From Escherichia phage ECO26.1 3-1, in the sequence record OR844578: a stretch of 51,807 nt of DNA; one strand, given 5' to 3'. Of this stretch, positions 42,601 to 43,149 are shown piece after piece. The translations under genes and the position numbers were made by a program. Numbering within the stretch: position 1 is the first letter of the stretch; each line of letters begins with the position of its first letter. The notes under the pieces are model-generated. The model saw only the letters and a program-made list of their open reading frames with translations. It was not told where the DNA came from and did no database searches.

Positions 42601-43149
42601 ATGGCTAAAATTATTTTAGTAGATGGCCCGGATAATGCTGGTAAAACAACTTTCATTAATGACATAATGGAAATTAGTGAAAGATATGTAAAGATTGATT
42701 TCCCTAAACGAACAGTTGATGGACGCTTCGATGTTAAGTCTCGAAATGAAGTTGGTTGTTTCGAAACGATGTTGAATTATTTAGACCCTACTAAGATTTA
42801 TCTGTTAGACCGTGGATATATTAGTAACTGGGTTTATGGACGTATTCGACAAGATGCGGACTCTGTTCTTGATGTTTATGAGCAGGATTATGTTCGTCTT
42901 TGCCAAAACCATGATGTGTTCACAATTATTTTAACACGTAACGAAATGACTGAAAGTTTTGAAGACGACCTTATTACTTTGTCTTCATTCGGTTTTAATA
43001 CAGTCATTTCACATTTTGAAGAGTTTGCAATTCATAACAAAATCCAAACGTATCAATTACTTAATCATGATGGTGCTAACAAAGTTATAGGATTTAATGC
43101 AAGCGAACGTAATGGTTTGATTACAGAAATCATCAAATGGGCTCGTTAA
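42601..43149 (+). CDS. P-loop nucleoside/nucleotide kinase-like protein
   Basis: N-terminal ILVDGPDNAGKTT resembles thymidylate/dNMP kinase P-loop; 182 aa. Confidence 0.6.
   Translation: MAKIILVDGPDNAGKTTFINDIMEISERYVKIDFPKRTVDGRFDVKSRNEVGCFETMLNYLDPTKIYLLDRGYISNWVYGRIRQDADSVLDVYEQDYVRLCQNHDVFTIILTRNEMTESFEDDLITLSSFGFNTVISHFEEFAIHNKIQTYQLLNHDGANKVIGFNASERNGLITEIIKWAR

Follow-up and report, generated by a model that had tools for sequence, protein, structure and literature searches.

The 51,807-nt stretch of DNA analysed here as a whole (the window) originates from Escherichia phage ECO26.1 3-1 (OR844578), an RB69-like T-even phage of the genus Mosigvirus. It carries a gene for a P-loop kinase of predicted thymidylate kinase (TMPK) fold, which is located at the end of a cluster of genes for cytosine modification. 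An initial annotation had described it as a 182-aa P-loop open reading frame (ORF) between a candidate transferase and uvsX. The coordinates bear this out, with VDGPDNAGKTT at residues 7-17 and the Walker A motif at G9-T16. The ORF and its sequence features are as follows.

42601..43149, plus strand: ORF for a P-loop kinase of predicted TMPK fold (RB69p045 homolog), 182 aa, ATG to TAA
42591..42595, plus strand: GAGGA, putative Shine-Dalgarno sequence read from the sequence, 5 nt 5' of the kinase ATG
42625..42648, plus strand: Walker A motif G9-P-D-N-A-G-K-T16, from alignments including E. coli Tmk
42700..42711, plus strand: F34-P-K-R37 after strand 2; FPK is invariant, R or K stands at 37 in all sequences but one
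42808..42813, plus strand: D70-R71, equivalent of the TMPK motif DR(Y/H), from alignments
42937..42939, plus strand: R113, the sole invariant Arg in the LID-equivalent loop, from alignments
42958..42975, plus strand: F120-E-D-D-L-I125, an acidic loop and family signature, in place of the Arg-rich LID of E. coli Tmk

This ORF is a real, conserved gene and not a chance ORF, because it matches PHROG 761 ('thymidylate kinase') at E = 5.7e-45, occurs at at least 95% identity in 152 phage records (megablast; nearly all Mosigvirus phages of Escherichia and Shigella), has homologs in 343 phage records (tblastn), and shares 39 invariant columns in an alignment of 18 relatives (42-72% identity). The homology search that had been proposed as a check also returned RB69p045 (NP_861735.1) at 98.9% identity. 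The latter is essentially the same protein, at the same site between arabinosyltransferase 1 and uvsX and with the same TMPK-like predicted fold.

The kinase ATG follows the stop codon of the transferase gene (42597-42599) after 1 nt. Since the Shine-Dalgarno sequence of the kinase gene falls within the 3' end of the transferase gene, the arrangement suggests translational coupling from transferase to kinase. The end of the kinase ORF is separated from the start of uvsX by 98 nt. A scan of positions 36400-44600 revealed promoter and terminator sites no more numerous than in shuffled sequence.

As a feature, the gene is not novel: it is already annotated, and its product has appeared in print as a nucleotide kinase predicted for the cluster. 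RefSeq names RB69p045 "thymidylate kinase". Among the products of the cytosine-arabinosylation cluster, it is given as a predicted 'nucleotide kinase' in Table 1, and there only, without discussion (Lee et al., NAR 2026, PMC13326640), and also appears in Table 2 of PMC8056088. The gene goes unmentioned in Thomas et al. 2018, and a phage transposon-mutagenesis preprint contains no essentiality data for genes of Bas46 or LC53.

Fold and motifs of the kinase

The AlphaFold2 model built from the 18-sequence alignment has a pLDDT (predicted local distance difference test) of 88.3 and a pTM (predicted template modelling score) of 0.85; only residues 121-125 are of low confidence (pLDDT < 50). In structure comparison, with Foldseek in agreement, the closest fold to this model was TMPK, and matches to TMPKs were stronger than those to deoxynucleoside kinases (dNKs). 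A sequence-profile search of the PDB was headed by RecA fusion constructs, a P-loop-only match judged to be an artefact, and the TMPK matches were marginal, at E values of no better than 0.004-0.07 and over residues 4-42. Scans against Pfam and NCBIfam yielded sub-threshold P-loop matches only.

The P-loop, FP-basic, and DR motifs correspond to those of E. coli Tmk, and the acidic third position of Walker A is present together with the DR motif. GPDN and K15 are unchanged in all aligned sequences, while A13, G14, and T16 vary only in distant relatives. D11 corresponds to the acidic P-loop residue of TMPKs, at the site where the deoxyribose 3'-OH is bound. The invariant N12 replaces the catalytic Arg of type I TMPKs. 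F34-P-K-R37 is similar to the FP(E/D)R motif through which eukaryotic TMPKs contact the phosphate of the nucleoside monophosphate (NMP). With the most distant T4-like relatives added to the alignment (JS10, Marfa, Ac42, and SJ_PmiM; 36-38% identity), conservation in the family extends to GPDNxxK[ST]T, FPK[RK], acidity at position 55, D70-R71, S75-N76, V78-Y79, R113, F120-E-D-D123, F132-N133, and N160. Walker A, FPK[RK], DR, and SN..VY were invariant or nearly so down to 36% identity.

The acceptor side of the protein is different. TMPKs contact thymine through the motif F-x-x-x-R of the NMP-binding helix; the window kinase has F54-E-T-M-L58 at the place where E. coli Tmk carries this motif, and its NMP-binding region is shorter by approximately 25-30 residues. 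The loss of F-x-x-x-R is compatible with a cytosine-type base. The TMPKs compared here (T. thermophilus 5x7j, vaccinia 2v54, and E. coli Tmk) share 14-19% identity with the window kinase and possess F-x-x-x-R and either a P-loop Arg or an Arg-rich LID, whereas the acidic FEDD loop belongs to the window kinase. T4 gp1 phosphorylates 5-hydroxymethyl-dCMP (hm-dCMP); similarity of the window kinase to deoxynucleoside monophosphate (dNMP) kinases of the gp1 type (Pfam PF21448 DNMK; 1dek) was found neither in sequence nor in fold. We read the protein as a member of the TMPK/dNK superfamily that is probably active in phosphotransfer and whose acceptor site has been rebuilt.

Gene cluster and its distribution

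The following genes surround the kinase gene in the window.

36599-37234, plus strand: arabinose-5-phosphate isomerase, cluster member
37416-39101, plus strand: AfhE-like nucleotidyltransferase/kinase, 561 aa, cluster member
39086-39487, plus strand: HAD phosphatase, cluster member
39545-40705, plus strand: U32-family protein, cluster member
40702-40941, plus strand: small ORF, RB69 gp49 homolog, 79 aa, PHROG 8601 (a family without functional annotation)
40984..41700, plus strand: ThyA homolog (Pfam Thymidylat_synt), predicted 5-hydroxy-dCMP synthase, RB69 gp48 homolog
41700..42599, plus strand: DNA arabinosyltransferase 1 (RB69 gp46:47 homolog; PMC13326640 Table 1), 299 aa, directly 5' of the kinase
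43248..44420, plus strand: uvsX, the conserved downstream boundary of the cluster

The modified base in RB69 DNA is 5-hydroxycytosine arabinosylated through an ether link at C5, rather than arabinosyl-hydroxymethylcytosine, and gp48 was shown experimentally to be a flavin-dependent synthase of 5-hydroxy-dCMP (5hodCMP) (PMC13326640). The modification cluster comprises gp45-gp55 (PMC13326640); the order of synthase, transferase, kinase, and uvsX places the window genes in a cluster of this type. The signature D169N is predictive of 5hodCMP synthases (PMC13326640), and N177D is known to change the specificity of thymidylate synthase from dUMP to dCMP (PMC13326640, refs 46 and 60). Because the ThyA homolog of the window has Asn and Asp at the positions of E. 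coli ThyA D169 and N177, respectively, and shares 99.2% identity with RB69 gp48, it is, as judged from its sequence, a 5-hydroxy-dCMP synthase and not an hm-dCMP enzyme. The initial annotation, which had framed the pathway around hm-dCMP, was wrong in this respect. Since the window belongs to a Mosigvirus, the modified base of this phage is arabinosyl-5-hydroxycytosine, not hydroxymethylcytosine. The same annotation had correctly stated that gp1 is encoded elsewhere: no homolog of the gp1-type dNMP kinase was present in the 51,807 nt searched.

The kinase and the synthase co-occur. Against the 343 records with the kinase stand 342 with the synthase at at least 60% identity, the genus counts match, and there is one clear exception, Morganella phage MP1. 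No Tequatrovirus (phages with hydroxymethylcytosine, e.g. T4) was among the kinase matches listed or in the genus counts shown. All T4-like loci that were examined (Mosigvirus, Karamvirus-like, Winklervirus, EcS1, Yersinia, Dhakavirus, Marfavirus, Proteus, Morganella Rgz1, Acinetobacter, and the metagenomic L029) have the kinase gene between those for DNA polymerase and uvsX, within a cluster that also encodes isomerase, AfhE-like protein, HAD phosphatase, synthase, transferase, and in some cases the U32 protein. The same cluster was present in 20 further T4-like loci (L001-L004, L008, L010-L018, L020-L022, L025, L026, and L029). Two gene orders occur, namely synthase, transferase, kinase and HAD phosphatase, kinase, (U32), synthase, transferase; in either, the kinase gene overlaps or abuts its neighbours.

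The exceptional phage MP1 (NC_031020.1) has the following two genes of relevance.

L027 20500-21030, minus strand: kinase of MP1, between polymerase and uvsX
L034 42020-42859, minus strand: td gene of MP1, with Asp at the position of E. coli ThyA N177

The whole 163-kb genome of MP1 contains no gene for synthase, transferase, AfhE, HAD phosphatase, U32 protein, or isomerase, and the absence of the cluster is likewise stated in PMC8056088. The full cluster is present in its congener Rgz1. The MP1 kinase shares 54% identity with the window protein and retains 39/39 of the family-invariant residues; at this level of overall identity, their retention indicates that the kinase is under purifying selection without the cluster. 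Unlike in MP1, the td products of Rgz1 and Proteus phage SJ_PmiM have Asn at the N177 position, which hints that MP1 td has switched to dCMP as substrate. Because N177D switches thymidylate synthase from dUMP to dCMP, MP1 may make another C5-substituted dCMP, which its kinase would serve. We considered MP1 as a refutation of the link between the kinase and modified cytosine, but the Asp in td weakens this objection. MP1 also retains gp56-like, DenB-like, and Alc-like genes.

When 1.84 billion representative proteins were searched by profile, 317 relatives of the kinase were detected at E <= 1e-3, 45 of them at E <= 1e-10. In eight relatives (P0059, P0060, P0065, P0067, P0070, P0075, P0076, and P0125; 314-357 aa), the C-terminal part is an MBD4-like HhH-GPD glycosylase domain. 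This domain matched MBD4 from the PDB at E = 1.4e-8 (phmmer) and retains the motif G-x-G-K-Y-x-x-D-S. Three loci contain such fusion genes.

L028 8001-9074: kinase-glycosylase fusion
L037 1446-2390: kinase-glycosylase fusion
L038 6205-7173: kinase-glycosylase fusion

A standalone MBD4-like domain gave nothing significant in the window or the T4-like loci.

Several distant relatives neighbour genes of ThyA homologs. P0040, P0059, P0060, and P0070, which originate from a metagenomic T4-like phage, a PolA-type phage, and two other contigs, are encoded within one or two genes of such a homolog. In L028, a small ORF separates the fusion from a preceding 394-aa ThyA homolog, and genes for an FMN reductase, a SIS isomerase, and an AfhE-like protein come after the fusion. 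In L037, it is directly 3' of a 247-aa ThyA homolog. In L038/L039 (PolA-type phage), the kinase relative comes one ORF after a 276-aa ThyA homolog and precedes a GT4-like protein; arabinose-activation genes (isomerase, AfhE, HAD) were not detectable nearby. Asn at D169 and Asp at N177 are common to the ThyA homologs beside these relatives, in T4-like phages, and in Pootjesviridae. An even more remote relative (L023) is encoded 1.2 kb from a ThyA homolog that retains D169. Because synthase, kinase, and GT4-like genes stand together in L038/L039 with no arabinose-activation genes nearby, this distribution indicates that the kinase family is tied to a base-modifying ThyA homolog across lineages and not to arabinose metabolism.

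The gene directly 3' of the L028 fusion and two genes past ThyA (L028 9068-9613) encodes an NADPH-dependent flavin mononucleotide (FMN) reductase (Pfam FMN_red, 7.9e-12). This neighbour fits a flavin-dependent hydroxylation that needs reduced flavin.

A kinase-like gene of Pootjesviridae (L006 6751-7386, Rhizobium phage RL2RES_098; L007 2396-3007, phiM9_272) was rejected as a member of the family, its similarity being marginal. The hhalign probability was 48%, and the hmmsearch score of approximately 8 bits was no better than that of E. coli Tmk. Walker A reads GKD rather than GK[ST], and the Asp of the DR motif is lost. This gene may be inactive or of separate origin.

Two further observations concern other members of the cluster. 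The gp49-like ORF overlaps the end of the U32 gene and is kept only in some loci (L001, L008, L012, L015, L016, and L018); it has no Pfam match, and a likeness to chorismate mutase was not detectable. In Rgz1 (L025 7023-7400) and SJ_PmiM (L026 4892-5278), a gene for a type II chorismate mutase (Pfam CM_2 at 5.9e-12 and 2.7e-12, respectively, above the cut-off) lies between the U32 and synthase genes. In the U32 family, RlhA, TrhP, and UbiU/V hydroxylate in a prephenate-dependent, oxygen-independent manner, the product of RlhA being 5-hydroxycytidine in rRNA. Given the chorismate mutase neighbour and these prephenate-dependent hydroxylases, the U32 protein may by analogy offer an anaerobic route to 5-hydroxycytosine. 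It was labelled a 'sugar or heterocycle reductase' by Lee et al. (PMC13326640).

Predicted role in the synthesis of modified cytosine

That the ORF is conserved, has the fold and motifs described, and accompanies the synthase gene is established here; catalysis, a nucleotide acceptor, and 5-hydroxy-dCMP as this acceptor are inferred. The kinase is likely to be a nucleotide-directed phosphotransferase. The narrower assignment, for which we have middling confidence, is that it serves as the cluster's own dNMP kinase for C5-substituted dCMP and converts 5hodCMP to 5-hydroxy-dCDP (5hodCDP). The neighbouring ThyA homolog would make 5-hydroxy-dCMP, which the kinase would phosphorylate to 5-hydroxy-dCDP in an ATP-dependent reaction. 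A nucleoside-diphosphate kinase would then yield the triphosphate 5-hydroxy-dCTP, the phage polymerase would build it into DNA, and glycosyltransferases would arabinosylate the base in DNA. In T4-like phages, the kinase step would be partly redundant with the gp1-type dNMP kinase. In RB69, the latter enzyme, gp159, turns 5hodCMP into 5hodCDP (PMC13326640), so that T4 gp1 and RB69 gp159 are the known enzymes of the metabolic step on modified dCMP that is proposed here. In lineages without gp1, the RB69p045-type kinase is probably needed.

Several observations weigh against this assignment. RB69 gp48 and gp159 suffice for the appearance of 5-hydroxy-deoxycytidine (5hodC) in E. coli DNA (PMC13326640). 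Since gp159 performs the step and these two proteins suffice, an RB69p045-type kinase is not strictly required for the conversion of 5hodCMP to 5hodCDP. PMC13326640 and PMC8056088 contain no experiments on the kinase; He et al. 2026 and Mahler et al. 2025 may address it. Pfam PF02223 was not matched at E <= 0.1, and TIGR00041 scored 16.3 bits at a cut-off of 83.25. The catalytic Arg residues of TMPKs are missing, both in the P-loop (type I) and as an Arg-rich LID (type II). Because R113 stands alone beside the acidic FEDD loop and N12 occupies the P-loop, the activity or the acceptor could be unusual. The Pootjesviridae gene is collinear, following those of synthase and transferase, and yet its homology to the kinase family is not demonstrable. 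Finally, the eight kinase-glycosylase fusions could point to a role at the level of DNA.

Such a role is the best surviving alternative, although we consider it improbable. The ligand of the protein would be a C5-modified pyrimidine nucleotide, and the protein would act, possibly without catalysis, as a scaffold or specificity subunit or as a DNA kinase, together with the transferase, the synthase, or repair; 5-hydroxymethyluracil DNA kinases serve here as an analogy only. The glycosylase fusions, the putative translational coupling to the transferase in the window, and the replacement of the usual TMPK catalytic Arg residues and LID by an invariant acidic FEDD loop agree with it, as does the fact that a gp1-type kinase already acts on 5hodCMP (PMC13326640). 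However, the Walker A Lys and Thr and the DR motif are conserved as in an active phosphotransferase, the 182 aa contain no evident DNA-binding element, and MP1 retains the kinase without the transferase. Also, fused phage genes often encode steps of a single pathway, which need not imply a shared substrate.

Two other kinase activities are less probable still. RefSeq and PHROG 761 label the protein a thymidylate kinase, and TMPK is indeed the closest fold, but an ordinary TMPK that converts dTMP to dTDP is quite unlikely. The term 'thymidylate-kinase-like' used in the initial annotation holds for the fold, Walker A, and the DR motif; it does not extend to the cut-offs of PF02223 and TIGR00041, to the thymine-binding F-x-x-x-R, or to the catalytic Arg residues. 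T4 gp1-type kinases handle dTMP, and these phages already possess one (e.g. MP1 gp255). The distribution follows the cytosine-hydroxylating synthase, with no Tequatrovirus among the matches listed. There is a similarly small chance that the protein is a salvage dNK that phosphorylates 5-hydroxy-deoxycytidine or dC at the 5'-OH. After strand 2 it has FPK[RK], basic as in TMPKs, in place of PEP with the catalytic Glu, and DRG in place of ERS; Pfam dNK (PF01712) was not matched, and TMPK matches were stronger. The catalytic Glu and ERS motifs of dNKs are thus absent, and the LID-equivalent loop, with its single Arg, lacks the dNK pattern R-x-x-x-R-x-R. The dNKs dCK and dGK as well as YorR of the B. 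subtilis prophage SPbeta (2axp / 3kb2) have no detectable sequence relationship to the window kinase.

Sugar activation, i.e. regeneration of UTP for UDP-arabinose by a UMP/UDP kinase or phosphorylation of a pentose, is very unlikely: the kinase shares its cluster with the arabinose-5-phosphate isomerase, the AfhE-like nucleotidyltransferase/kinase, and the HAD phosphatase, and lies directly 3' of the HAD phosphatase gene in JS10, Marfa, and SJ_PmiM, but its fold and P-loop are of the TMPK/dNK type and not of the UMP/CMP-kinase or sugar-kinase type, its L038/L039 relatives adjoin a synthase-type ThyA with no detectable isomerase, AfhE, or HAD genes, MP1 retains it without any sugar genes, and sugar phosphorylation in the pathway is assigned to the C-terminal domain of the AfhE-like protein, which has 561 aa (PMC13326640). 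Among the alternatives, it is this one against which the distribution speaks most strongly. For the same reasons (no arabinose genes in L038/L039, no sugar genes in MP1, and the kinase domain of AfhE), two of the substrate options of the initial annotation, a sugar and NTP regeneration, are disfavoured, while its third option, a modified nucleotide, fits the distribution best.

A broader scheme can be offered tentatively, as a possibility we regard as doubtful. The kinase, the D169N/N177D synthase, and a DNA glycosyltransferase would form a portable three-gene module that has become dispersed over unrelated lineages, namely T4-like, PolA-type, and possibly Pootjesviridae phages. The kinase would be a cytosine-specialised offshoot of TMPKs, in which an altered pocket, devoid of F-x-x-x-R and equipped with FEDD, selects C5-substituted dCMP. 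The MBD4-like fusions would link synthesis of the nucleotide pool to the removal of deaminated 5-hydroxyuracil.

In either case, the kinase poses a gap-filling question in a known system and not a new kind of system. If its role is at the DNA level or redundant, this would explain why a gp1-type kinase suffices in heterologous expression. If the kinase is the dedicated enzyme for 5-hydroxy-dCMP, it would complete the pre-replicative part of a DNA hypermodification pathway discovered only recently, and the enzyme would be needed to move this pathway into other hosts or into phages without a gp1-type kinase. It would also represent a natural TMPK scaffold retuned to a cytosine analogue, which would be useful for making modified dNTPs.
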